Shown: positions 7,376 to 64,000 of the stretch, piece after piece
Layout: each line of letters begins with the position of its first letter
Numbering within the stretch: position 1 is the stretch's first letter
DNA from: Chiloscyllium plagiosum
Taxonomy: Eukaryota
Direction of reading: 5' to 3'
Length of the DNA stretch: 64,000 nucleotides
Assembly: GCF_004010195.1 (NCBI RefSeq)
Contig: NC_057719.1
Location: 26,812,418-26,876,417, forward strand
Program-made: the position numbers and the translations under genes
Notes under the pieces: model-generated
Databases searched by the model: none
The model's input: the letters and a program-made list of their open reading frames with translations, nothing else
What the model was told of the DNA's origin: nothing

Positions 7376-7529
7376 TTAGCACAGAATTCTTCACCTCTGA
7401 CCTGCTTTTGAAGTCACAGTATTTATTTGGCTGATCCAATTGTGTTTGTGATGAGTGGTAACTCCACCTAGGATATTAATGGTGGGGGATTCAGCAACAG
7501 TGAATATCAATGGGTGCTGATTAGATTCT

Positions 7530-7665
7530 GAGGAGAAAGTGAGGTCTGCAGATGCTGGAGATCAGAGCTGGAAATGTGTTGCTGGAAAAGCGCAGCAGGT
7601 CAGGCAGCATCCAGGGAACAGGAGAATCGACGTTTCGGGCATAAGCCCTTCTTCAGGAATCAGAA
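7530..7665 (-). mobile_element. Penelope-derived short element with hammerhead-like core
   Basis: Minus strand CTGAAGA-A-GGGC-TTAT-GCCC-GAAACGTC (7629-7656); GATTAGATTCT on both flanks. Confidence 0.75.
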
Positions 7666-8269: not shown

Positions 8270-11200
8270 AAGCTGGTCAGGGATGATATCACGGCTGTGC
8301 TAAAGGAGGACACTATGGAGGGCTTGAGTAGTGAGGCATTATGGGTGGAGCTGAGAAATAAGGAGGGTGCAGTTACATTGTTGGGGCTGTATTACAGGCT
8401 TCCCAACAGTGAGTGTGAGGTAGAAAAACAAATAGGTAAATAGATTATGGAAAGATGTAGAGGCAATAGGGCAGTGGTGATGGGAGGTCTTTAATTTTAC
8501 CAACATTGACTTGGATACACTTAGTGTCAGATGTCTGGATGGGGTAGAATTTGTAAGAAGCGTCCAGGAGAGTTTTCTAGAGCAGTATATCAATAGTCTG
8601 ATGAGGGAAGGGGCCATATTGGACCTGCAATTGGGGAATGAGCCAGGCCAGGTGGTAGAAGTTGCGGTGGGGGATTTCTTTGGGAACATTGACCACAATT
8701 CTGTACGCTTTAGAATACTCATAGACAAAGATGAAAGTGGTCCTAAGGGAAGAGTACTAAATTGGGCTAAGGCCAATTATATCAAAATTAGGCAAGAGCT
8801 GGGAAATGTGGATTGGACACAGCTATTTGAAGGGAATTCCACATCTGATATGTGGGAGGCTTTCAAAGATAGGTTAAAGATAGTGCAGGATAGGCATGTC
8901 CCGTTGAAAGCAAAGGATAGGAAAGGCAAGATTTGTGAACCGTGGATGACAGGAGAAATCATAAGACTTGCCAAGAGGAAAAGGGAAGCGTACATAAGGT
9001 TCAGGCAGCTAAGAACAGAATGGGCCCTGGAGGAATATCGGGAGAGTAGGACCAATCTTAAATGAGGAATCAAGCAGGCTAAGAGGGGTCATGAAATAGC
9101 TTTAGCGAGCAGATTTAAAGAGAATCCCAAAGCCTTTTATTCTTATATAAGAAGCAAGCGAGTAACGAGAGAAAGGATTGGTCCACTAAAGGATAAGGAA
9201 GGAAGGCTGTGTGTTGAACCTGAGAGAATGGGTGAGATTCTGAATGATTACTTTGCATCAGTGTTCACTGAGAAGAGGCACATGATGAATGCTGAGATTA
9301 GAGATAGAAGTTTGATTAGTCTGGATTACATTGACATAAGTAGGGAAGATGTATTAGGTAGGCTAGAGGTTATTAAGATGGACAAATCCCCAGGACTGGA
9401 TGGGATCTATCCCAGGTAGCTGAGGGAGGTGAGAGTGGAAATAGCTGGAACCCTGACAGATGACTTTGTAGTATCCGTAAACACAGGTGAGGTGCCAGAA
9501 GACTGGAGGTTGGCTAACATGGTGCTACTGTTTAAGAAGGGTGGTAAGGACAAGCCAGGGAACTATAGACCGGTGAGCCTGACGTAGGTAGTGGGCAAGT
9601 TGTTGGAGGGAATCCTGAGGAACAGGATGTACATGTATTTGGAAAGGCAAGGACTGATTTGGGATAGTCAACATGGCTTTGTGCGTGGGAAATCATGTCT
9701 CACACATTTGATTGAGTTTTTTGAAGANNNNNNNNNNNNNNNNNNNNNNNNNNNNNNNNNNNNNNNNNNNNNNNNNNNNNNNNNNNNNNNNNNNNNNNNN
9801 NNNNNNNNNNNNNNNNNNNNNNNNNNNNNNNNNNNNNNNNNNNNNNNNNNNNNNNNNNNNNNNNNNNNNNNNNNNNNNNNNNNNNNNNNNNNNNNNNNNN
9901 NNNNNNNNNNNNNNNNNNNNNNNNNNNNNNNNNNNNNNNNNNNNNNNNNNNNNNNNNNNNNNNNNNNNNNNNNNNNNNNNNNNNNNNNNNNNNNNNNNNN
10001 NNNNNNNNNNNNNNNNNNNNNNNNNNNNNNNNNNNNNNNNNNNNNNNNNNNNNNNNNNNNNNNNNNNNNNNNNNNNNNNNNNNNNNNNNNNNNNNNNNNN
10101 NNNNNNNNNNNNNNNNNNNNNNNNNNNNNNNNNNNNNNNNNNNNNNNNNNNNNNNNNNNNNNNNNNNNNNNNNNNNNNNNNNNNNNNNNNNNNNNNNNNN
10201 NNNNNNNNNNNNNNNNNNNNNNNNNNNNNNNNNNNNNNNNNNNNNNNNNNNNNNNNNNNNNNNNNNNNNNNNNNNNNNNNNNNNNNNNNNNNNNNNNNNN
10301 NNNNNNNNNNNNNNNNNNNNNNNNNNNNNNNNNNNNNNNNNNNNNNNNNNNNNNNNNNNNNNNNNNNNNNNNNNNNNNNNNNNNNNNNNNNNNNNNNNNN
10401 NNNNNNNNNNNNNNNNNNNNNNNNNNNNNNNNNNNNNNNNNNNNNNNNNNNNNNNNNNNNNNNNNNNNNNNNNNNNNNNNNNNNNNNNNNNNNNNNNNNN
10501 NNNNNNNNNNNNNNNNNNNNNNNNNNNNGTTTGTAAGTTTACAGATGACACCAAAATTAGAGGTGTAGTGGACAGCGAAGAGGGTTACCTCAGATTACAA
10601 CAGGATCTTGACCAGATGGGCCAGTGGGCTGAGAAGTAGCAGATGGAGTTTAATTCAGATAAATGCGAGGTGCTGCATTTTGGGAAAGCAAATCTTAGCA
10701 GGACTTACACACTTAATGGTAAGATCCTAGGGAGTGTTGCTGAACAAAGAGACCTTGGAATGCAGGTTCATAGCTCCTTGAAACTGGAATCATAGGTAGA
10801 TAGGATAGTGAAGGAGGTGTTTGGTATGCTTTCTTTTATTGGTCAGAGTATTGAGTACAGGAGTTGGGAGGTCATGTTGCTGCTGTACAGGGCATTGGTT
10901 AGGCCACTTATGGAATATTGCGTGCAACTCTGGTCTTCTTCCTATCAGAAAGATGTTGTGAAACTTGAAAGGGTTCAGAAAAGATTTACAAGGATGTTGC
11001 CAGGGTTGGAGGATTTCAGCTATAGGGAGAGGCTGAACAGGCTGGGGCTGTTTTCTCTGGAGGCTGAGGGGTGATCTTATATAGGTTTACAAAATCATGA
11101 GGGGCATGGATAGGATAAATAGACAAAGTCTTTTCCCTGGGGTTGGGGAGTCCAGATCTAGAGGGGATAGCTTTAGGGTGAGAGGGAAAAGATATAAAAG

Positions 11201-17729: not shown

Positions 17730-18317
17730 TACAGTTCAGAAGGAGGGCATTTAGCCCATAGTGTCTGTGTTGGCCAAAAATGTTACCCAGCTTATTCTTG
17801 ATATTTTAGATCATAGCCCAGTATGATTTTAACACTTCAAATGCACATTTGAGTTTGTTTTAAAAATGTGACAATGTTTTTTGCCTGTACCACCCCATCA
17901 AGACAGTCGATTCCAGACTCACACCATTCTCTGGGTTAATAAATTTCAAATCCACTTTCCATTGATCTCATTAGCTTTCACTTTGTTTGTGTGGGATTTG
18001 ATCAAACTTCTTGCAGAATGTGCTACTGTCATCGACCCTGTTAGTTGCACAATAATCTCTGTTGACTATCCTTGATCCAACCCTGCCTTTCCAAATTCAG
18101 TATTGCTCAGAATTTTTTGCATTTGTTTGTCCACTACCAATGTTAGACCAACTGGACTAAATTTTCTCAGTCAATTCCTTTACAATTTTTTAAACAATTC
18201 TCTAACATTAGCAGTTCTCCAGTCTTCTGGTTTGCTCCTGCAGTTGGAGGCAATTCTAAATGATGTTCTGAAATAATCATGGAGCATTCCTTTCATCTGT
18301 TCACATTACTGGATAAA

Positions 18318-18462
18318 AACAATGACTGCAGATGCTGGAAACCAGATTCTGGATTAGTGGTGCTGGAAGAGCACAGCAGTTCAGGCAGCATCCGAGGAGC
18401 AGTAAAATCGACGTTTCGGGCAAAAGCTCTTCATTGGGAATAAAGGCAGAGAGCCTGAAACG
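18318..18462 (-). mobile_element. Penelope-derived short element
   Basis: Homologous to 7530-7665; GCCCGAAACGTCGA is retained but the CTGA core is mutated. Confidence 0.75.
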
Positions 18463-19599: not shown

Positions 19600-20205
19600 G
19601 TTCTTAGTCCCATAGCACCTCACCAAGATCTTTCTCACGTCTCCACTTCTTGCCTTTAAACAATCACCTAACCTTAAATAGACCATTAATTTGCAGCAAA
19701 CTACCCAGCCTTCATGACAACATCAACCTCAATACCATTCAACCCTGTTAGGGTAGCCTCTGTAAGATACGTCGGAGCATTGATACACGTGGGGATACCA
19801 CCCACCATGTGCACAGCAGATACTCGTGTGAATCAGAAACGTTGTGTGTTTCATACGTAGCAGGCAAGGATGCCCTGAGGCATGTTATATTGTCAAAACC
19901 ACACAGATGCTACGACAATGGGTGAACGGACACTGTGCAATAATCGCCAGACAGGAATGTTTCCTCCCAGTTGGGGAACACTTCAGCAGTCAAGGACATT
20001 TGGCCTCAGATCTTTGGGTAAACGTCCTCCAATGCAGACTTTGGGGTACACAACAATGCGGAGTCACTGAGCAGAGGCTGATTGCCAAGTTCAGTACCCT
20101 TGAGGGTGGCCTCAACTGGAATCTTGGGTTCATGTCGCACTACAGGTAACCCCACTACACGATACACTCTCACAGCAAACACACACATACACTCTCTCAT
20201 ACACA

Positions 20206-20241
<36 letters not shown>

Positions 20242-21035
20242 GTATGTAACAAACAGACACACACACTCTCTCTCTCAGATGCATATACTCCCTCACACTC
20301 ATGCACACTCTCTCTCAAACACACACACTCACACATGTAAATCTATGGGGTGAATTTGCACTTGCAGATTTGTATTTGCAGATGCATTCTATTTTGTTCA
20401 AAAAACACTCGCGAATGAATTGAATGCACCTATGATGGCTCTTAAATCTTTCATCAGGTAGAGTGGAGGAGTAGGCTTTGATTGATTAATATGCAAATCT
20501 CAGAATTTCTTTCAAGTCACTACTCCAAGATAACTGGAGTCTGTCTGTGTCTTAACCTGGAGTCAGACTGGTTTTATTTCCAAAGTAGACAGTCAGTCAA
20601 TGTAGCCTTTTATAAACTCCTACTTTGGAAATAAACCCAGTCCGACTCCAGGTTAAGACACAGACAGATTCCAAACAAGACCTCACGCCTAAAGTACATT
20701 GGCTAACGAGAGGTTCACCTCCTTTATATTGATAACACATTAAGTTATCTTGGAGCAATAACTTGAAAGGAATTCTAAGATTTGCATATTAATCATTTTA
20801 AACCTGCTCCTTCATTCTAACTGATTAAAGATTTATGAGCCATCTTAGGTGTGTTTAATTCGGTTGCATGAGTTATTTGATCCTTTGATCCTTTCCTTAT
20901 AAATTCTGTGTCTAAGGTCTTCCTCTCCCACTAGCACCTGATGAAGGGGCAGTGCTCTGAAAGCTAATGCTTTCAAATAAACCCGTTGGACTTTAATTTT
21001 TGTCCTTGCCCAACACCAGCACCTCTACATCATCA
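19600..21035 (+). mobile_element. Penelope-like element: GIY-YIG endonuclease remnant, microsatellite, pseudo-LTR with hammerhead-like core
   Basis: ORF 19844-20149 (CYIVKTTQMLRQWVNGH...PVGEHFS...EQRLIAKFSTLEGGLN); CTGATGA-AGGGGC-AGT-GCTCT-GAAA at 20938-20962. Confidence 0.8.
20150..20336. repeat. Compound (CA)n/(CT)n microsatellite
   Basis: Directly visible dinucleotide runs. Confidence 0.95.
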
Positions 21036-22568: not shown

Positions 22569-23800
22569 AGCTAAATCCGTGATAACGCACCTGCGATTAC
22601 ATTCTTACGACTCGCAACCTGTACAAATTTTAAATTAAAAGTCTGTAACGTAAGACTCCAATGAAACAGTCTCATATACTTGTCTTTAAAGTGCTAAGAA
22701 TGTCGGTGGATTGTAATGTGTGTACACCACAATCTCCGACGCATTGTTGCTGACATACACATTAAAATGTTGTAATGTCAGTACCAAACTCAAAAGTTCT
22801 TTTTCGATTGTGGAGTATTTCCTCTGTTGGAGGAAGTTCAATCTGGCAGTTCAATCCCAACATCGTCTTCCTGTAGGAGTACAACTCCATCTCCTATGTC
22901 ACTTGCATCAATGGCAACTTTAAAAGGTTTGGAAAGTTTGGTGTAGGTAAAACTGGTTTGGTGGTTAATATGGCTTTCAAATGGTCGAATGTCTCCTGGC
23001 ATGGTTCTATTCACCAAAACATTGTGTTCTTCTTCAGCAGAATGGTTAATGGTCCCACTACACTGCTGACATTTGGAACAAACTTTCAATCGAATCCACT
23101 GAGTCCTAAGAATTAAGGTTGGTTATGGAAATTCTTCGATGGCCTTCGTCTTTGCGCTCCGTAGGGTCAACCTTCCATAACTGATGTTATGTCCCAAGAA
23201 TGTAACCTCTGCTTTTGCAAATTAGTTTTATTTAAGTTTATCACCAGTTTTGCTTCTCGTAGTCATTCAAAGGGCTCTGCCAACTGAACCATGAGATCTT
23301 TCCAGGATTAGTAAAGATCACAACATCATCCAAGTAGACTGCACAGTTTGTTAACCCAGCCACAACTCTGTTCATGAGTCTTTGGAATGTGGTGGGTATG
23401 TTCTTCATCTCTTTAAACTGATATAGCCCATTTGGGGTTACAAACACAGAAATTTATTTCACCGTCTCTGTTGAAGGTACCTGCCAGTAACCACGTGTTA
23501 AGTCCAACTCGGTGATATAACTGGCTTGTCCGACTCTCTTGATGCAGTCCTCCAAACTAGGAATTGGATATGAGTCTGATTTTGTAACGGCATTGACCTT
23601 TCAATAATCCAAGCAGAATCATGGAGTCCTGTCCGGTTTGGGAACTAAGATGATCAGTGAACTCCACTCGCTCTGGCTTGATTCGATGATGTCCTCATCA
23701 AGTATGGCCTCCACCTCCATCTGGACCTGTCTGGCTTTGAAAGGATTAAGCCGATAGGGGTGTTGTTTTATTGGAGCAGTGTTTCCTATATCTACTTCAT
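22569..23800 (-). pseudogene. Reverse transcriptase + RNase H remnant
   Basis: [51 protein letters not shown]. Confidence 0.9.
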
Positions 23801-24059
23801 ATACAATAGCATTAGTCCTCTCCATCTGATTTTTACTTATGTCCTTATACTGCAGTAACAAATCTTTCAACTGCATTCTATGCTCCTGAGACAGATAGCT
23901 TACTAACCTATCCCACTGCTCAAGGACTTTTTCTTTTTCAAATCTATTTTGAGGCACATCAAAATCCATATCATCTGGACTAGATTCTTCACCCTGCGGG
24001 GCAGTAACTAACACCTGTTTCTCCAGTTCTCTCTCTCTAGTATAATACTGTTTCAACAT

Positions 24060-25178
24060 GTTCATAAAACATACCCACTACCTTTTTATTTCTATCTGGT
24101 ATCTTTACCAGATAGTTCACCTGACTCAACATTTTCTCAATTGATAGGGACCACTAAACCTGGCTTTGAAAGGAACACTATCAATTTTTCTTTAACTAAT
24201 TTCAAAAGGACTTTCACTCATGCCCGAGTATTAACTCGAAGTGAGTGAACATAGAACATTACAGCGCAGTACAGGCTCTTCGGCCCTCAATGTGGCGTCG
24301 ACCTGTCATACCAATCTGAAGTCCAGCTAACCTACACTATTCCATGTACGTCCGTATGCTTGTCCAATGACGACTTAAATGTACTTAAAGTTGTACTTAT
24401 ACCAATCATTTGGGTAGTCAACATGGTCTTCAAGGTCTAATGCCACCTTTCTAAAGCATTCAGGATGATACTCACAGGATTTAAAGTGCTGTATACCTAA
24501 GCTATCCATAACCTCCTTAAACAGTCTAGCATTAAAATGTGACCCTTGGACCGACTGAATCTTTCTGGGTAGCTCAGACCGTGAGAAGAAAGTTATTAAC
24601 TCCTCTACCACCCTCTTTGCCTTGATACTCTGGAATGGAATTGCCTTAAGAAATCTGGTAGACAAAACCATTATGATTAACAAGTACTGGTTCCCACTTT
24701 TAGTTCTCGAGAGGGGACCTACACAATCAATTATAACCCACGTGAAAGGTTCTTCAAATGTGGGAATTGGCAACAAAGGTGCTGGTTTTATTACCGCCTG
24801 TGACTTACCTACCATTTGGCATGTATGACACGTACGGCAAAATTTAACCATATCCTTGTGCATTCCAGGCCAATAAAAATGTTTTTTTACCTTAGCCTGA
24901 GTCCTTCGTACCTCTAGGTGACCTCCTACAGGTAGTTCATGCGTTACCTGTAATGCCTCCTGCGTGTATGCTACCAGAAACATTATCTGGTGCACTTTGG
25001 CCCATTTCTCCTCTGCACTAACCTGCCGTGGTCTCCGTTTCCATCTTAGGATTCTATCTTTCAGATAATAAACCTCCGGAATATTCTCTGATTCCTTTTT
25101 GGAGTACGCATCCACATATATATCGTTTGTTGCCTTGTCTTGATGTTGCAAGTCTCTTAGCCTTTCAGGAGTAAACAC
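24060..25178 (-). pseudogene. Integrase remnant
   Basis: HHCC finger (HELPVGGHL...FYWPGM...CRTCHTCQ) and core (IIDCVGPL...SVQGSHF). Confidence 0.9.
24247..24393 (-). mobile_element. CR1-type 3' tail inserted in the integrase
   Basis: (GAACATA)n tail; same family as 49820-50025. Confidence 0.8.
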
Positions 25179-25401
25179 TTCTGTCTGACTCTGCCTGTTC
25201 AGGTTTTTCCTGTACCATTACATCAAACAGGTTATCTGCTTACTGAATCTCAACTCCTTCATCTTTCTCTTTACTTTTCACTTCATGCAGTGATTTATGA
25301 TAGTGGGATCTGGTTACCACACAGTCTGGGAAAATACCAGGGTATTTCTGTTTTAACTCCTCAGTTTCTTGGTTTTCCTTGGGCTTCTCCACAACAAGGG
25401 G

Positions 25402-30290: not shown

Positions 30291-30989
30291 CACTACGACC
30301 GATCTTCAGACTGTTCTGAGGGAGGATCGCTGAAACTGGGCACGGTGGCCCAGTGGTTAGCACTGATCGCTGAAACTAAAATGTTAAGTCTACTTTCTTT
30401 CCACAGATGCTGCAAGACCTGCTGTGTTTTCCCAGCAATTTCTGTTTTTGTTTCTGATTTTCAGCATCCACAGTTTTTTTTTGTTGAAAATAGTATCCCT
30501 GTCTTTGCAACTTCATAATTTGATAGGTCCAATTTAAATAAAAACAAAACGCTATGAATACTGGAAATCTGAAATAAAAGTGAAAACTACTAGAAATAAT
30601 AACTTTGTCAGCATCATTGGAGAGAGAAACATAGTTAACATTTTGAATTGTACATGACCCTTCTTCAGAACTGAAAGAAGGTAGAAATCTGATAAGTTTT
30701 ATGCATTGGAAGGAGGGACAAAGTTAGAAGAACAAAAGTCAAAGTGTAGTTTGAAAATAAGAGACAGTAAGTGACAAGGATATTAAGCAACAAAGGGCGT
30801 GGAATGAGTTTTAAAAGAACTAAAGCACTTATCAAAAGTGAGTGTGAATTGCAGAATAATGAATAGCTGTTTCTGAAACAGGAAAAACGAGATTCAGACT
30901 AGCACAAGACAAAGAAACAGAATCAAATTGAGAGACAAAGTTCATGGTCTGAAATTGTTGAACTTGATGTTGAGTTCACGTAGGTATCA

Positions 30990-38283: not shown

Positions 38284-39450
38284 TCAGATTGCCCAATACT
38301 TGCAAGTTTTTGTCATCTGCAAATTCTGAAATTTTGTCCTGAAGAGCCAAATCATGAATACAGATTTACAGATCTTCTTAAAAGTTTACCTTTATTTAGC
38401 CAAACTTTCAATCACCCATCGGTGCCCCACATATCTCCTTATCAAAGCAAAACACTGAAGTTGTGGAAAATCTGAAATAAATCAGTAAAAGCTGAAAATA
38501 TTGGCAGATTAGGCAGCTTAGGTGGAAAGCAAAAGACTGAGTTAATGATTCAGGTTGATGACCTTTAAACAGAACATGGACCTGAACTGAGATGCTGGCA
38601 CACCCACTGAAGAGTGAAGCCTTTTCTGTTTTTATACTGCACGCCTCATTTTCCTGGGCTTCCATTTTGTTTGATTGTACTTTTTGTAAAGCAACTTTTA
38701 TTTGTATTCTGATAAAGGTGCTACATGAGGTGGTACAACCAACAGCAAAGTCACATGGTATTGCAGTGTTGTGCTTCTGGAGAAAGCACTTGCCCACCTT
38801 GTAAAAGTCCAACCCAACCAAAAGTAATCCAAGGCGAGCAGAGGTTATGTGTCTAACCTGTTAACAGAAGAGAAAGAATGTGCTGGAGAGTGGGGGTGGG
38901 GTCAAGGTGGAACTCAACCAACATCATCATCACCACTAGTCAAGACAGAAATTGCTGGAGAAAACTTAGCAGGCCAGGCAGCCTAATGGAGAGAGAAACT
39001 GAGCTAACGTTTTGAATCCAGCACAACTCTTCTTCGGAACAAGTTTCAAGAGAAGGATGCCATCTTTCGATGTAGAGAAGTTTGTCCAAGCCTTGCAAAG
39101 TTTCTGTTAATATCCAGCACCCCAGGGTGGGGGTTACCCAAGAACATGACCAGGTGTGCGGATGGATTGGGTAATCCCAGAGACTGGGAGCTGTAAATTG
39201 GAATGGAGTCACCTCTGCTGTCACACTATGTGTGTGTATGTGGGTTGATGGGGAGGGGGTGGGGAGTGAAGGGAAATANNNNNNGGGGGGGGGGGGGGGT
39301 GAAGTGGGAGGGGGGTGGGGCGGTGCGTGTGTGGATTTCCCCACCTCCAACCCAGTGAAGACTGTGCGTCAGGAAGAGAGTGCGCAGCCGCGGCGCCTGC
39401 AAGCTGTCAGTGCCGGCGATGGAGCGGCTGCAACGGTGGCCAGTCCAGTC

Positions 39451-39504
39451 CCAGCCCCAGCTCCAGCTCCAGCTCCGGCTCCGGCTCCAGCTCCGGCTCC
39501 AGCT
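39451..39504 (+). repeat. Hexamer tandem repeat (CCRGCT)n
   Basis: About 9 CCAGCT/CCGGCT-type units. Confidence 0.9.
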
Positions 39505-39527
39505 CGGACTGCAGCGCCGGTGCGACG

Positions 39528-39680
39528 ATGAGCCGCTTCCCGCCACACACTGACCAGCCGCTCGGAGCCGCCCAACAAACATCTCCCCAAGAGCCTGCAG
39601 ACCCAGGATGCCCGGTGGAAAAAGAGGGCTGGTGGCACCGCAGAATACTTTTTTGGAAAACATTGTCAGGCGATCCAGCG
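39528..39680 (+). CDS. Candidate first coding exon or uORF of an unidentified host gene ([10 protein letters not shown]...[21 protein letters not shown])
   Basis: ACGATGA start context, 51 open codons, strong donor GCG|GTAAGG at 39681 (phase 0). Confidence 0.5.
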
Positions 39681-39704
39681 GTAAGGTGGCACTTTTGTAG
39701 CGAC

Positions 39705-39735
<31 letters not shown>

Positions 39736-42329
39736 CCCCCCCCCATCCACCAACACTTCCTCCCATTAGCTATTGATTAACGGAGCTATAGTTTCTAGTC
39801 CCTAGGTGCAGTCAGTGCCCATCTCTCCAACCTCCTTTCACTGTCCTCCTTGCACGCAGATTGACTGCTTATTTATCTTTAAGGTGCAATAGATCCTCAT
39901 AAATTAAACTGAAAGGCAGTTCATTTCGATTTAGTTTTGACCTGTTCTAATTTTGCTCGTCTTGCATACAATATTTCGTTCCACAACATCGAATGAAGCG
40001 ACTAGGAATTCTGGAAGATTGCTAAACTTAATTGAAAAGTAATTTGTTAGAACACTTGTTAATAGATCTCGCGCTGGAAAGCGATTGAACATTATTTTTC
40101 CTCTTGTAAGTGTTTATAATGGCTGTGCTGTATACAAAAACACAGTTCCTTCTGATCTCTGCCGTCATTCCGACTGTCAGATCAGATCCCCAGCGTGCTC
40201 CCTAGTGTTATTTTTAGTTTTCAACCATCAAGCGAGACTAATATACAGCAACGATGGGTTTCCTCAACAGTGAATTCGGCAGCCTGACAGTAGCCACAGA
40301 CAGGGAAGACGCAGGGTGCAAAGCGATTTTTTTTGTTTTTGGGAAATTACTGAGAGAGAACCTGGTGATAGATAACTCTCAGGAACTTGCAGCGCTCAAG
40401 TAGAACCGATCGAAGGATGTCGCTGAATGAAGGGCTTGCAGGAGAGTTTCACCTGAAGCGTTCCTGTAAGTCCACTTCCAATCTGTTGAAGCCGATGTTG
40501 CAATAGAGACAAGGAACGTGGAAGAGTTCCAAATGTTGGTTAAACGAAATTACTTTTGGTTTGTGGGCAGAATGATGTGGGAGCTGGTATAAACTCCGCC
40601 GTTACTAGTGAATCGATATCTGTAAGCTATAACATTCCCCTTATTTAACACACTGTCATTTACAAATAAAGAAATCCAATCTAAATATTATGTGCGATAT
40701 TCCTGAAGTTGCAGCCACTAGTTTAGAAACTACACCTAATGAGTTCACAGCATTGAAAGCGGGTTTACATAAACACCTGTGTCTATTCCTGCAGACCTAA
40801 CCGAGAAGCATCTTTAACGGGAGAAGAGTCTTTAAAATTGTAAAGCTTAATATTTCTCACAGTGCTTGTTGCATCTGAAGAGCTAGGAGGATGTAAACGT
40901 AAAGAGACATTGCTTTATATATAGTTGACATCTATTTGGTACAGTGTGTTATCACTGGCAGTCAATCTTGCCAGCAGGGGTTTGTTGAAAATTGCTGTGA
41001 TCTGTTCAGAGCTTGAGCGATGTTAACAGTTCCCACTTGCTGCATTCGCTAAACATTCGTCAGAGTCCAACGCTGGACAGAGCATTTGTAAGCCCACCAA
41101 CTCAGTGGTATTTTTCTTGCCATTACGGGTCGCTGTTACTCCTCACTGACAGGCAACTCTACCTCAGTACCCCCTGAGCTAAACCCTCGCTCTGAACAAA
41201 TACTGATGCCTGCAGGCAATTCCGGCTGCAACCAACTTTTCAACAGTGATTCGCAGGAAGACGCTGAACAGTTTGACTAACACTGTACGTCAACCGTCGG
41301 CTACAAATCAACTCTTAAAAGCCCTATTTTACTAATGAGCATTGCCGATCTATTTATTAAAGTGACAGAGGCCGCTTATTAGGAACCAGCCCTTTCTAAA
41401 TGCGTACATGCATCAATGCAGCAGTAGGAAACTGGGAAATCAAAAGGACGTTTGAAGGATTGTTCCAGGAGTGCTTTCGAATTTAGAAACAGATTAATAG
41501 TGCATTTTGTGCCTCTTGAAAAGTTCAATAGTCAGGATTTGTTTAGTAATTTATGCAAAGGACAAAGAAAATTTCAATTTATTTAAACTGAAACAGGCAC
41601 CCAGAACCAATTGATGCAGCAAAATGACCACCGTGAAAGTTCTGAAATCAGAGAATTCCAACTATGGATATAATTTAGAAACCTTAGGATAATATTTATA
41701 TCCAGTAGCTTGTTTAGCTGGGAGTGCCAGACAGGACCGTGTTTCCATACCTCCACACCAGGAGCCTGTTCGGATCACTGGTCGATAATTACAAATTATA
41801 AAATTAGCAATTATTTCTATTAAGAATGGAAACTGCATTGGAGTACAGATTGCAAAATATCCATGTGTCACTAAGTCTGTCTATTTCCGACTGCATAATA
41901 TCACCCATCTCCAAGCTGCCCTCGGTTTGGAATCCTCAATCATGCCGTCATTACTTTGAGTGTTGAGTGTTTATACCAATGTACATTGCTGGCTTGTTTC
42001 CCATTTTCTACTCTTATAAACTTGAGGTCATTCAAAAACTCTTCTGCCTTCAGTTTCCACAAAGGACAATGTAAATGTTGATTTATTGCAGAAACAATCT
42101 AACAAATAGAGAAAAGTAGTAAATTGATAGACATAAACAATTACATAGCATTCACCATGAAGTTAATGAACTTAGAAAATTAGAAGCAATTGGTATTTTT
42201 TGGGATACAGTTTAAAATCCCTGGGGTAGGATTTATATATTGCACCAAGTCCTGTTCACCCATCAACGTTGCACTTATTGATTTATGTTGACACCCTTTT
42301 GAAGAATGCGTTGCTTTAAAAAAAATCAT

Positions 42330-44725: not shown

Positions 44726-46034
44726 ATTGTGACCAGAAAATTGTAAAAAAGGTTTTTTAAACGGGTGGAGAGGATCAGGGAGAAACATTAGAGTTTGGGA
44801 GCACACGAGGCTGGAATCAGGGGAATAGAGAGGTCAGCAGGGCTGGGGATAGGGAGCAGTGAAGGGATAGAGTAATTTAAATACAATAATAATCATTTTA
44901 ATTATGAAATATTAAAGAAACAAGGTGTCAATGAAGGTCAGCAAGAGCAGGAAAGATGGATAAAAGATTTGCTTTGGAAAAGGGAATGTTCAGTTTTGAA
45001 TGAGCTGAAGTTTGTGGTAGGTAGGAGATGGTAAACCAGGAAGCAAGCCAGAAAAGCTTTGGATCAACTGGAGATGAAGTTGGGATCCACCAGTAGTTCC
45101 GTAGTCCTTCACAGCAAATTGTCAGCCCAATTTTCCATTCGAAGAACAGGAAAGGGTTGAGGTGTGAATTGCTTGCCCATTTGTGGTGAACCTATACTAT
45201 ATTAGCTGTTATAGACTAACATCAACACCCTTAAGTCCAAAGGTGATAAAGGCATGAATAAAGCTTTCAGCAGCTGATGGGGTAAGGCTGGCTGGATGTC
45301 ACAAAAGGAATTTGGGACCAGAAGCAACACAGGCTCAAAGAGACGATTGTGTTGTGAACACTCTCGTAATGATGGGAATGAAGAATGGAATTATTGGAAG
45401 GGAAATTGACTTTATCACAGGATAATAGGATTGGACTCAAAATAAAATTGCTTCAGTTAGTGTTTAGCCAGAGGAGATTTTGGCTCCTTCAAGACTAGAT
45501 GTCAGAGAACTGATCTGACAACATTTGGGCATGGAACATTTGAAAGAGGTGATGTATAAAGGAACTGGATAGAATATATGAAAACCATCCTTATAGAGAT
45601 TAATGTCACTGAGTGATGATATGTAGATGAGAAAGGGTGGGGTAATGACAATGGATGCATGAATTACTGCAAATTGTGATTAAACAAGGATGGAAGTAAA
45701 ACCATTGAGAGAATGCCATGGCTTTGATTGTAAACTTTATGGCAGCAGGCAATGGAAATCCATTGGAACTTTAGGTGATGCTCCAGAAGACAATGTGCAG
45801 TCAAGTGTCAAAAGGCACAGTGAAGGATAGGAGAGAATATGCAACAGGGTCACAGAGAATGTCATTGATGTGGGAAGTGTGGAAACATGGCTGATGCTTG
45901 TGGAATATTTTTAACCAAGGTCTCCAAGGGGGAGGGAAAATGAATAAAACAAGTTAAAATATTTTAAAAAATAATAACATATTATTTGTAGCTCTCACCC
46001 CCGAAGAAGAAATCGAACTTCATCAAAATTTAGA

Positions 46035-46240
46035 AACAAAAGCAGAAATTGCTGGAAAAAACTTAGCAGGTCTGGTAGCATCTGAAGAGAGAAAGCAGAG
46101 GTAATGTCTCAGAACACTGTTCTGAAGAAGGGTCCCTGGACCCGAAATGTTAACTCTGCTTTCTCTCCATAGGTGCTGCCAGATCTTCTGAATTTTTTCA
46201 ACAACTTCTGTTTTTGTTTCTGATTTCCAACATGCAGAAT
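46035..46240. mobile_element. Palindromic Penelope-derived short element with hammerhead-like core
   Basis: 46032-46105 is inverted at 46150-46222; CTGAAGA-A-GGGTC-CCTG-GACCC-GAAATGTT at 46122-46151. Confidence 0.75.
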
Positions 46241-46839: not shown

Positions 46840-47230
46840 GCCTGGAGGAAGAATGCCTCATCTTCTCTTGGGACCCTGCAGCTACATGGGATCACTGCGG
46901 GTTTCACAAGTTTCATCATCCCCCTCTCCGCACTTTATCCCAGACCCAAGCCTACAACTCAGCACCACCCTCTTGACCTCTCCATCTTCCTTCCCACCTA
47001 TCCACTCCACCCTCCTCTCCAATCTATCACCTTTCCCGCACTTTCATCTACCTATCACATTCCAAGCTACAGTCTCCCCTCTCATTTATCTCTCAACCCC
47101 CCCAACCCACAAGATCAAAGGCTTATGCCTGAAACATCGATTTTCTTGCTCCTTGGATACTGCCTGACCTGCTATGCTTTTCCAACATCACACTTTCCAC
47201 TCTAATCTCCAGCATCTGCAGTCCTTTCTA
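46840..47230 (+). mobile_element. Penelope-like 3' end / pseudo-LTR
   Basis: LEEECLIF.LGTLQ-like endonuclease tail, C-rich tract, GGCTTATGCCTGAAACATCGA terminus as in 7530-7665. Confidence 0.7.
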
Positions 47231-55407: not shown

Positions 55408-56145
55408 ACATAGAGTCAAAGAGATGTACAGCATGGAAACAGACCCTTCGGTCCAACCCGTCCATGCCGACCAGATATCCCATCCCAATCTAGTCCCACC
55501 TGCCAGCACCCGGCCCATATCCCTCCAAACCCTTCCTATTCATATACCCATCCAAATGCCTCTTAAATGTTGCAATTGTACCAGCCTCCACCACATCCTC
55601 TGGCAGCTCATTCCATACATGTACCACCCTCTGCGTGAAAAAGATGCCGCTTAGGTCTCTTTTATATTTTCCCTCTCACCCTAAACCTATGCCCTCTAGT
55701 TCTGGACTCCCCGACCCCAGGGAAAAGACTTTGCCTATTTACCCTATCCATGCCCCTCATAATTTTGNNNNNNNNNNNNNNNNNNNNNNNNNNNNNNNNN
55801 NNNNNNNNNNNNNNNNNNNNNNNNNNNNNNNNNNNNNNNNNNNNNNNNNNNNNNNNNNNNNNNNNNNNNNNNNNNNNNNNNNNNNNNNNNNNNNNNNNNN
55901 NNNNNNNNNNNNNNNNNNNNNNNNNNNNNNNNNNNNNNNNNNNNNNNNNNNNNNNNNNNNNNNNNNNNNNNNNNNNNNNNNNNNNNNNNAATTAAACTCC
56001 ATCTGCCACTCCTCAGCCCATTGGCCCATCTGGTCAAGATCCTTTCATAATCTGAGGTAACCCTCTTCGCTGTCCACTACACCTCCAATTTTGGTGTCAT
56101 CTGCAAACTTACTAACTGTACCTCTTATGCTCGCATCCAAATCAT
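55408..56145 (-). mobile_element. Young CR1 3' portion spanning an N-gap
   Basis: Tail near-identical to 50290-50650; KFADDTKIG...MGQWAEEWQMEFN. Confidence 0.9.
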
Positions 56146-60770: not shown

Positions 60771-62650
60771 TGAGGGAAGAAAATTTTGATGGAGTCCTGA
60801 TTGGCCTGGTCTTTGTAAATAGTTATTAAGTGCTCATTAGTTTGCACCAATATATTTTACAGTCATCTGTCGAAAGTATCAGAACCTGGTTGTGATTTTT
60901 ATGGGGCTTCAGAGGTTTTGATCACAATCTTTCACTCCTGCTTAGATATGGCAATGATCATCGAGGAGTGGAGAGTAGATGTTAAAACCATGTTGAAAAG
61001 ACTGGACTATTTCAAGGCAATCAGCTTAACATCTGTCTGTGGATTTTTAGAACTACTGTTCTGGGGAAAATAATAGTTGGAACTTGGAAACATAAGTGTT
61101 GCTAAGTGCAATTCAGAATGGACCTGTTTGAATCTGTTCGTCTAACAGGTTTGGCTCAGTTGATTAAGTTCTTTGATTAGGAAAATGTATTTGATGTTGA
61201 GAAAATCGAGATTGCGCTTAATAAAGTGCCACTTAATAGACTTCTTAATAAAATTGAAGCCCGTGAAATTAAAGCAACTGTTGCTGTGTAGATATGAAAT
61301 TCACAAAGAAATGGAAAACATAGAGTAGTGTTAAATGGTTGCATTTCCGATCAAGAGTGCAATGATGTCCTCCAGGGATCTGCGTTGGGCCAACTGCTCT
61401 TTTTACGTGTTTTTATGTATTTGTTTATAAATGAATTAGATTATACAATGTTTGCAAATGACTTGAAACTCAGAAACAAAATAACTAGTGAGAAAGATCG
61501 TGACAGACTCAAGGGACATATGGACTGGTGAAATGGGCAGACAAATGGCAGATGAAAATTAATGCAGCGAAGTGTGGAGTAATTCATTTTGCCAAGAATA
61601 ATGAGGAGCAGCAATATAAACCAAATGGTGCAATTTTAAAGCATTTGCAGAATTGAAAAGATCTGGAATGTCTGTAGCTTCTGAAAGTGGAAGGGTAAGG
61701 TGAGCAGGCTGTTAAAAATAATTTTTGGTTTTCTAGATAAAGCTGTAAGGCTTTAAAGGAAGAAAGTTATGCTAAACCTTTAGGAAGGCACTCTGCTGCA
61801 GTAATAAAGATGCATGTCCAATTCTAGTACCACATTTAGGAAGGATGTGAAAACAAAGAACAAAATAAAACCAAGACATTGCAAAGAAGATCTACTAAAA
61901 TGGTACCTGTGTGAGACTTCAGATGTGTGGAGAGACTTGAATGGGAGTTCTTCTTCAAGTAGAGAGGTTTAGATGTTTGATAGAGGTCTTCAAAAATCAT
62001 GAAAGGTTTTAAACAGTAAGAGAGGAGTAACTGTTTCCAGTGGCAGTAATCAGAGGATTCAGGTTTAAGATAACTGACAAGAACCAGAGGAAAAGGTGAT
62101 ATGCAATGAGTTAGCTGGAATACACAACTTGCAGGGCAATAGAAGCAGCATCTGTGATACCATTCAAAACAGATTTGGGTAAATACTTGAAAAAAATAAT
62201 TCTTGACGTATGTACCTGACCTATTTCAGATCTGTATTAATTTATTTTGGTTATAACGTTGAAATAACATTTGCTTTCAGTAGTCCTACTCTTTTTTTTA
62301 ATCAACTTTTGATTTAAAAATAAATTACTTTGCAATCTCATGCCTAGTTCCTTAATGCAATGATTTTAGGTTTGACCAGTTCATCAATTATCTCCTAACT
62401 ATTTGTAATCTTAACTGCCTTGCTTTTTTTTAAAGCTCTTCTTCTGTTAGATCATCTTGTTAATCTACCTGGTAAAACAAAGACAAAATAATTCTTCAAC
62501 GTTGCTGCTGTTTCACTGTTTGTTGTACTGTGAAAGATATTTCAAACATTGAAATGTATTTCTATGATTTTTACCATGTTCATGATGTAACATTTCTAAG
62601 CTGTTTCTTGAAGGAATTAGCAACACGTTCTTTGAGTTAAATGTGAGTTT

Positions 62651-62731
62651 ATGGTGAGAAGGCTCAGATTGACTAAAAAAGGAAAGCCAGAAATTGGTAG
62701 GCAGCAGCCTCTGGGTCAAAGTGTTACACAA
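62651..62731 (+). CDS. Candidate ATG-containing exon (MVRRLRLTKKGKPEIGRQQPLGQSVTQ)
   Basis: Unique sequence; acceptor CTTCTTCTGTTAG at 62450; in-frame stop upstream of the ATG; strong donor CAA|GTAAGG at 62732 (phase 0). Confidence 0.35.
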
Positions 62732-62891
62732 GTAAGGCATCAAAATATTTTTTGTACTTGTTTTAAAAGAAACCTATTTCAGAAGAGATCAGTGAGGCCA
62801 CTTTAGCTCAATGGTGGCTTGCGATTGACAGGGTGTATGAATGGAGATGAAGAAATGGCAGATCCGTGTAAGAATATGTGCAGAATAAGCA

Positions 62892-63098
62892 TGATGTGGA
62901 GGTGCCGATGTTGGACTGGGGTGTACAAAGTTAAAAATCACACAACACCAGGTTATAGTCCAGCAGGTTTATTTGGAAGCACTAGCTTTCAGAGCACTGC
63001 TCCTTCATCAGGTCCTGATAAAGGAGCAGTGCTTTGAAAGTTATTACTTCCAAATAAACCTGCTGGACTATAATTTGGTTTTGTGTGATTTTTAATTT
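62892..63098. mobile_element. Palindromic Penelope pseudo-LTR element with two opposed hammerhead-like cores
   Basis: Arms 62927-63012 and 63014-63098; 10-bp TSD AGAATAAGCA; homologous to 20930-21035. Confidence 0.85.
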
Positions 63099-64000
63099 AG
63101 AATAAGCAAACCAATGTTTGTGTATATTATGGATAGTTTGAGAGAGTGGAATAGTCTGCAGGATAGAAATTCAAATTAAACATATAGATGCTTGATCTTC
63201 TACCAGTTACATGATTATCTTCCAGAAGGTGTGTGCCCTGTACAGAGTCTATTGCATCAGTGGGTGGGAGAGATGATCCTCACAGAACAGCACCAAGAGG
63301 CTCTTGTGGCATCTCTGATTCTTTTTTTTTTAAGAAGACATTTGCTCATGGAACCCAGATTTTGCTAGCTCGGCTAGCACTTGTTTCCCAGAGAGTAGTT
63401 TGCTATGGATATGGAGTCACAGATCAGACCAGGCTAGGACAGCAGATTTCCTTTCCTAAAGGATATCAGTGAACTAATAGATTTTTACAATAATTGACAG
63501 TGATTACATGGTTACCATTAGGCTGGCTTTGAAGTCCAGATTTTTCTTTAATTCAATTCACATTTCACTATCTGCTGCAGTGGAACTGAACCAATGTTCC
63601 CAGCACATTAGCCTGAGATTTTGGATTACTTACTCATCATTGTGATACCACCTCCATTTTATTCTGATAAGAATCAGACAAACAAACTATTTTAAGAAGA
63701 TAATTCAAATATTTTAATGTTTTTAACTCAATGTGTTGAGAGAAGCTGTTACACATCTCTTGAGCAGATAGGATGAACCCAGATCTCTTGGCTCAGAGGT
63801 AGAGTCACTGCTGCTATATTACAAGAGTCCCTGAGAATTCAACCTTTTTTAATGGTTGTTGCTGTCTTTCCTGCGTTACCCATTACCGATTACCACAATT
63901 CTGAGATGATTTAAAGTGCAGACTTTCTCCATTTCTCCTGTTATAGAAATTTCAATTGTCTCGTTCATTGTGATTGAAAGGACACATCTGTTGAGTGTTA

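Follow-up and report, generated by a model that had tools for sequence, protein, structure and literature searches.

A 207-bp fold-back insertion in Chiloscyllium plagiosum as a probable truncated Penelope-like element with two short end pieces head to head

The stretch of DNA analysed here, a window of 64,000 nt from Chiloscyllium plagiosum, contains near its right end a 207-bp non-coding hairpin framed by a 10-bp direct repeat. A first-pass annotation, made from the letters of the window, had left two explanations side by side: an extreme truncation of a Penelope-like element (PLE) that was inserted in one event, and a non-autonomous, retrozyme-like ribozyme mini-element. The question raised by this locus is which of the two describes the unit, and how its inverted arms arose. 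The data reported below make it very probable that the unit is a truncated PLE insertion unit, whichever of two routes produced it. It is an ordinary dead PLE stub composed of two short end-piece copies head to head, and its layout (truncated copy, inverted copy, tail and target-site duplication, TSD) has already been described in print. The features of the unit and of the related sequence elsewhere in the window are the following.

19832..20146, plus strand: GIY-YIG-like endonuclease remnant, a 105-aa stop-free stretch that ties the terminus below to a PLE
20930..21035, plus strand: related PLE terminus outside the unit, about 790 bp downstream of the GIY-YIG-like remnant and co-oriented with it
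62882..62891, plus strand: target-site duplication, left, its last 2 nt being also element sequence
62892..62927, minus strand: PLE 'tail' of 36 nt, present on a single arm, between the two end clusters of the family
62928..63012, minus strand: left arm, the 3' part of a pseudo-LTR, near the family majority, with the intact hammerhead core and AATAAA
62968..62973, minus strand: AATAAA, with poly(A) 12-15 nt downstream in RNA reads of the family
62977..63013, minus strand: minimal type I hammerhead motif (CUGAUGA at 63011, bulged A, 5-bp stem II, GAAA)
63013..63013, no strand: inversion joint, a 1-nt spacer without microhomology
63014..63098, plus strand: right arm, an inverted, tail-less copy that stops at the second end of the family
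63099..63108, plus strand: target-site duplication, right

The perfect 10-bp TSD reported at first pass was confirmed, AGAATAAGCA being found without change at 62882-62891 and 63099-63108. The computed probability of such a match by chance is 1.7e-6 per register and 4e-5 across 25 registers, and 10-mer repeats of this kind were counted in 21 of 9,406,425 position pairs of the window. The fold-back around 63013 was confirmed as well, with arms at 62928-63012 and 63014-63098 of 85 nt each that are 89% complementary (9 mismatches over 85 nt) and that stop at the joint at the same base, within 1 nt. The arms account for only 170 of the 207 nt; the 36 nt at 62892-62927 are unpaired with the right arm, and the left arm including this tail measures 122 nt as against 85 nt for the right one. 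On the left, the boundary can be placed only to within 2 nt, the final CA of the TSD being element sequence too, and family ends occur at 62890, 62891 and 62892. The unit is devoid of any ORF, has a truncated inverted copy adjoining its 5' side, and accommodates a tail end, a no-tail end, the TSD and the joint in 227 bp.

The proposed match to the terminus of a Penelope remnant in the same window was borne out, at 89% over 64 nt (20933-20996) and at 21 of 24 nt (21010-21033). The open stretch upstream of that terminus, 19832..20146, was placed among GIY-YIG clusters of the ESM Atlas (0.94, 191 of 256 features), and four homologues of 63-67% were found, two of them from Chiloscyllium punctatum (64-66%). 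Pfam detected no GIY-YIG domain in this remnant nor in 3 of its 4 homologues scanned; a precomputed PF26215 assignment is attached to the homologue P0002. From position and orientation, we infer that the GIY-YIG-like frame and the 20930 terminus belong to one element. The whole of 19600-21035 has the composition of a PLE remnant, in which the GIY-YIG-like frame is followed by a (CA)n-rich tract, by nested inverted segments (20398-20535 against 20743-20880, and a palindrome of about 81% at 20535-20673) and then by the hammerhead terminus.

The distribution of the family was examined by comparison of 62500-63500, at 85% likeness, with 4 of 24 public runs: X1 from the same species, X10 and X18 from two relatives (the organisms B and C mentioned below), and X21, a poly(A) single-cell RNA library of which about 2% was used. 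Contigs matching this interval numbered 86,764, 76,439 and 68,598 in the three DNA runs, nearly all of them on the unit, which shows that its terminus is repeated very abundantly in each of the three organisms, contig depth not being equal to copy number. The results on junctions refer to 15 of 268 joints and 24 of 1286 loose ends, with 82 variant rows outside those listed. Loose ends of the family accumulate at 62890-62892 (985, 954 and 643 contigs in X1, X10 and X18 being alike), and a second cluster is seen at 62925 in X1 (453) and at 62927 in X10 and X18 (612 and 473). The two outer ends of the unit are these two end clusters in all three DNA runs. Outer ends of this kind are common to all truncated PLE copies because they correspond to the two reverse-transcription start sites; they are expected in any truncated copy and therefore give no sign of a separate family. 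To the question posed at first pass, whether copies share both ends, the answer is that the outer ends are indeed common family-wide, but this is uninformative, the inner joint being the telling end.

At the inner joint the picture is different. From 63013, 1044, 990 and 872 contigs, together with 1028 RNA reads, run on into GGTTGTGGAG, which is the upstream sequence of the parent, and past about 10 letters beyond 63013 the DNA consensus dissolves (agreement 0.39-0.42); therefore most copies end or diverge there. The depth at 63014 amounts to 600, 812 and 584, half of it with the parent letter, and the depth that crosses the joint without the parent letter is 303, 378 and 277 per run, that is about 0.04% of family depth, the reference at 63010-63013 being some 0.8-1.0 million as estimated from bin means. 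Among the 15 of 268 joints listed, nine are opposite-strand joints near the hammerhead, connecting 62945-62973 to 63000-63013, and none is the symmetric joint of the unit; a single contig, 107 nt long and from organism C, extends across the centre of the unit. On the contig data, a few dozen joints like that of the unit may occur elsewhere in the genome. Most simply, each insertion would form its inverted arms anew. The best-supported opposite-strand joint listed is that of 62962 to 63013 (11, 14 and 9 contigs), where the antisense and the upstream sense sequences have a few letters in common; this points to either an inversion point favoured by microhomology or a subfamily that has multiplied.

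The minus-strand hammerhead core was found as first described: it reads CTGATGA-A-GGAGC-AGT-GCTCT-GAAA-GC-TA from 63011 and is intact on the left arm, where a manual fit gives a palindromic AGCU, UA at the cut site and a predicted cut at 62983/62982. The decayed core of the plus arm (CTGATAA...TTGAAAG) was also recognized, with G8 replaced by A and stem I lost. Thus, of the 207-bp hairpin with back-to-back cores that had been proposed, the hairpin and the location of the cores on opposite arms stand, but only the minus core is intact. The left arm possesses the set of attributes defined for minimal hammerheads (min-HHR), namely CUGANGA, stem II, GAAA, UH and a palindromic helix III, a set that is incomplete on the right arm. 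At the joint, the native 5' strand of stem I is reduced to 2 nt, and the replacement pairs at 4 of 6 positions, with a G.G mismatch at the third; with the upstream sequence of the family, 5 of 6 pairs of helix I would be formed. The search with hammerhead models, recommended as a check, lent no help, the Rfam hammerhead families giving no match at E up to 10 (0 of 14 and 0 of 3 matches) and the only Rfam matches being generic hairpins below the gathering scores. The hammerhead is accordingly a putative one, assigned by manual fit to the published minimal motif. Viral, metagenome and prokaryote contigs gave 0 matches to a degenerate core pattern.

An RNA reading through the unit is predicted to form a single hairpin of -115 to -125 kcal/mol, in which the probability of stem II is 0.0; this fold would destroy the hammerhead and leave no working ribozyme. 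When the arms were folded singly, the z-scores were -0.2 to -1.1 and no hammerhead fold appeared, and near the core a competing hairpin (-10.4 kcal/mol) wins over stems I and II (-7.7 kcal/mol). The G8 to A change of the right arm lies at the position where G8C abolishes cleavage in Poseidon, as reported in PMC11167929. Minimal hammerheads are described as weakly active, and only as same-strand dimers (PMC4209133; PMC6765202); such a dimer is impossible in one RNA from this unit, because its cores are back-to-back on opposite strands.

The RNA library yielded 3164 reads on 62500-63500, of which 99% continue into unlike sequence and therefore derive from paralogues. Poly(A) is attached at 62953 in 600 reads and at 62956 in 429, these too being derived from paralogues, and the AATAAA of the family serves polyadenylation in some paralogue transcripts; an abundant repeat with a used AATAAA may end many host transcripts. 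The depth on the near flank was zero and only 1 of the 3164 reads lay over 63014-63015, figures that come from a 3'-biased, thinly sampled poly(A) single-cell library, a type unable to show circular RNAs. No pile of RNA starts or ends was called in X21. Among the data sets listed as containing the locus there is no RNA set, a fact with no bearing on its expression.

The reality and the age of the locus can be judged from the flanks. Contigs of X1 are identical to the locus over 62500-62917 and depart from it once over 63064-63465, at a point outside the arm; X1 may be the sample behind the assembly. In organism B, a contig from the left flank (62501-62919) and one from the right flank (63070-63471) reach into the unit; their 28 and 29 element letters fall just below the 31-letter bridging rule, the counts with the TSD being 38 and 39. 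They differ from the locus at 21 of 818 letters (about 2.6%); the right contig has 6 differences, of which the 5 listed are all outside the arm, so that of the 4 right-arm changes in this stretch no fewer than 3 are common to both organisms. Entry from both flanks together with these common changes therefore indicates that the insertion is probably older than the split from organism B, diverged by about 2.6%. The flanks are patchy in organism C. Four runs contain 0.93-0.95 of the words of 62000-64000, and no empty site was present among the 15 of 268 joints listed.

The arms have not diverged evenly. All nine differences have G/C on the left arm and A/T on the right arm (5 C>T, 2 G>A and 2 G>T); read along one strand, 7 of the 9 right-arm changes are of the type C>T or G>T. 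By depth, the family sides with the left arm at these differences: it reaches 7.3 million at 62942-62975, the corresponding bins of the right arm having 0.1 million and 5,000, and at 63020, 63034 and 63044 the family shows the left-arm letter. For arms identical at birth, the 9:0 split has p = 0.004, a post hoc value for one of many such units. Polarisation by means of the 20930 copy, which gave 4 right-derived, 3 left-derived and 3 unpolarised changes over 85 columns (one column belonging to the TSD), was set aside in favour of family depth, the 3 left-derived calls being situated in a misaligned deletion of about 25 nt. A similar fold-back of a second PLE-type family, at 46027-46226 and centred a few bases upstream of a CTGAAGA core, served as a control and showed no asymmetry (10 left, 7 right and 2 unpolarised); on this single control fold-back, the lopsided divergence is not general. 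The core of the control fold-back (CTGAAGA...GAAA) is found at 46122 and is absent from the left arm, and the 19 of 85 columns at which its arms differ are evenly divided. The arms of the unit have in common the letter at 62963/63063, which occurs in only about 4% of family depth and argues for a common source of the arms.

The layout is known from other PLEs. Like the EN+ PLE units of Arkhipova et al. (2013, PMC3846280) and Craig et al. (2021, PMC8557442), the unit has a 5'-truncated copy with an inverted head-to-head neighbour, a one-end tail in the range of 30-40 nt, a TSD in the range of 8-10 bp and a palindromic joint; it is unlike them in its extreme truncation, with no ORF between the repeats and 207 nt in total. 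The PLE tail is described as a 30-40-bp extension, often at one end only, and an inverted truncated copy with a tail is described as well (PMC8557442). The structure presented as typical for Adineta has a 9-bp TSD and an inverted pLTR that falls 37 bp short of the direct ones, inverted shorter pLTRs being accompanied by TSDs of 8-10 bp (PMC3846280). In Poseidon of Anolis carolinensis, studied in vitro by Frangieh et al. (2024, PMC11167929), the protein, a predicted dimer, cuts and extends both target strands, the tail is the stretch between two start sites, genomic ends lie at these sites, and insertion does not need the hammerhead; the host and the family are other ones, and inverted products are undescribed in the available part of that account. 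The type I core with an extra base after position 9, G10.1, the short helix I and the palindromic helix III are those of metazoan min-HHRs (Cervera and De la Pena 2014, PMC4209133), position 11.1 being U in the unit and C in the family majority. These authors related pairs of min-HHRs on opposite strands, 100-700 bp apart, to truncated PLEs; the cores of the unit are instead 3 nt apart, and no shark is named in the accessible text. Non-LTR retrozymes (Li et al., bioRxiv 2026.07.22.740005) resemble the unit in being non-coding, in the type I hammerhead and in the relation to PLE pseudo-LTRs, but their definition calls for units repeated in tandem, head to tail, with two or more ribozymes on the same strand, whereas the unit is head to head with one intact core. 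As in L1 5'-inverted and two-template insertions (PMC11702581), where both target ends are extended by reverse transcriptase and then joined, a discrete TSD is present; unlike L1 twin priming, which uses adjacent and nearly non-overlapping parts of the RNA, the two arms of the unit are copies of one and the same 85-nt stretch. A search that covered the subscription literature thinly yielded no paper on shark PLE fold-backs, and the supplementary hammerhead tables of PMC4209133 and bioRxiv 2026.07.22.740005 may include sharks.

The origin that we consider somewhat more probable than all others is a dead-on-arrival insertion of an endonuclease-bearing PLE, the arms of which were built at integration by priming from two ends. 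The TSD would result from nicks in the target separated by about 10 bp. Priming by one DNA end at the tail site would yield the left arm of 122 nt, and priming by the opposite end at the no-tail site the right arm of 85 nt. Both cDNAs would halt just past the hammerhead core, at its 5' edge and near the point where most copies of the family stop, and would be end-joined head to head without microhomology, the hairpin being a by-product of insertion. Consistent with this are the outer ends, which fall in the two family clusters in all three DNA runs, the 36-nt difference between the arms, the departure of most family sequence from the unit at 63013 with inversion elsewhere in other copies, the GIY-YIG-like remnant that precedes the same terminus and the similar fold-back of the second family. 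However, arms that stop alike within 1 nt and have the variant of about 4% in common fit arm-from-arm copying equally well, a single template does not predict the 9:0 split, Pfam gives no support for the endonuclease remnant, neither a reverse transcriptase nor a full-length parent was recovered, and an empty site was absent from the joints listed. Copying of one arm from the other is a possible, though clearly less probable, route, in which one cDNA or antisense template folded back or switched at the 5' edge of the hammerhead, the right arm was copied from the left one, and the endonuclease would then resolve the intermediate at the no-tail site. The near-perfect symmetry of the joint and the arms' sharing of the rare variant and of both CpG-decay states speak for it, as do Arkhipova et al., who take palindromic joints as self-priming (PMC3846280), and Craig et al., who attribute the tail to endonuclease resolution (PMC8557442). 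Against this route are the 1-nt spacer without microhomology or any obvious self-priming loop, the coincidence of the arm end with what is a reverse-transcription start site in another PLE (PMC11167929), and the improbability of 9:0 (p 0.004) for arms that were identical at birth.

The non-autonomous, retrozyme-like mini-element, a hairpin mobile as a 207-nt unit by means of PLE proteins, is largely refuted and very improbable. The clean TSD does frame the whole unit, in each run some 300 depth units pass 63014 with a letter other than that of the parent, the 107-nt contig of organism C is at hand, and non-autonomous PLE derivatives exist (PMC8557442; bioRxiv 2026.07.22.740005); nevertheless, the inner joint is not multiplied, being found in about 0.04% of depth while joints vary, tandem same-strand ribozymes are lacking, the plus core is broken, the hammerhead is predicted not to fold in the read-through hairpin and a single RNA read of 3164 passes 63014-63015. 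The alternative of the first-pass annotation, an extreme truncation inserted in one event, is in turn supported by the TSD, by the canonical outer ends and by the joint that is not multiplied. Two separate events (an older, decayed right arm joined by a younger copy, gene conversion of the left arm from a paralogue, or a later inverted duplication) would account for the nine private changes all being on the right arm, but a single perfect TSD frames both arms, the rare common variant lies mid-arm and organism B appears to have both ends, so that a history of this kind has little likelihood. An assembly or sequencing artefact at the palindrome is hardly credible: inverted PLE structures do trouble assemblies (PMC8557442) and no listed X1 contig crosses the centre, yet X1 contigs match the flanks and the outer parts of the unit with 0 and 1 differences, those of organism B enter from both sides, and the words of 62000-64000 are found in four runs in the proportion given above.

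Within the preferred priming from two ends, it is tempting to speculate that the arms were copied from two RNA molecules, one per nicked strand, by a PLE dimer, although we regard this as rather unlikely. With two RNA templates, the nine private changes of the right arm would have pre-existed in its template, and L1 inserts in opposite orientation that derive from two templates have been observed (PMC11702581). A variant of this reading is a damage-driven hypermutation of one arm. The arm split may come from a single template and chance, from two templates belonging to the same subfamily, or from damage confined to one of the arms. The lopsided divergence suggests a genome-wide comparison of one-template and two-template origins. 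If two templates were used, young shark fold-backs would record the PLE integration mechanism directly, and arm divergence above the age of the site would denote two-template priming, an open step in the PLE cycle. The single locus matters little, being one stub of a very abundant repeat, and its value is that of a clean miniature of the PLE insertion pattern; the whole family could be used to test how PLEs make inverted copies, a point described as unresolved by Craig et al. (PMC8557442).

Other short PLE-type termini, of at least two further families, are located in the window at 1748-1844, 7528-7660, 18310-18460, 30300-30490 and 47117-47225; several of them start a few bases upstream of a hammerhead-like core, and the copy at 7528-7660 is embedded in a GATTA repeat. 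Runs of N at 9728-10528 and 55768-55989 both lie within LINE-like reverse transcriptase remnants, the window containing 1029 N in total. Two ORF pieces are present on the minus strand at 23619-25217, which we take to resemble LTR-retrotransposon pol (the start of the reverse transcriptase and an integrase-like part). A GC-rich island with overlapping low-complexity ORFs (Pro, Ser and Gly runs) at 39226-39776 is possibly the first exon of a host gene.
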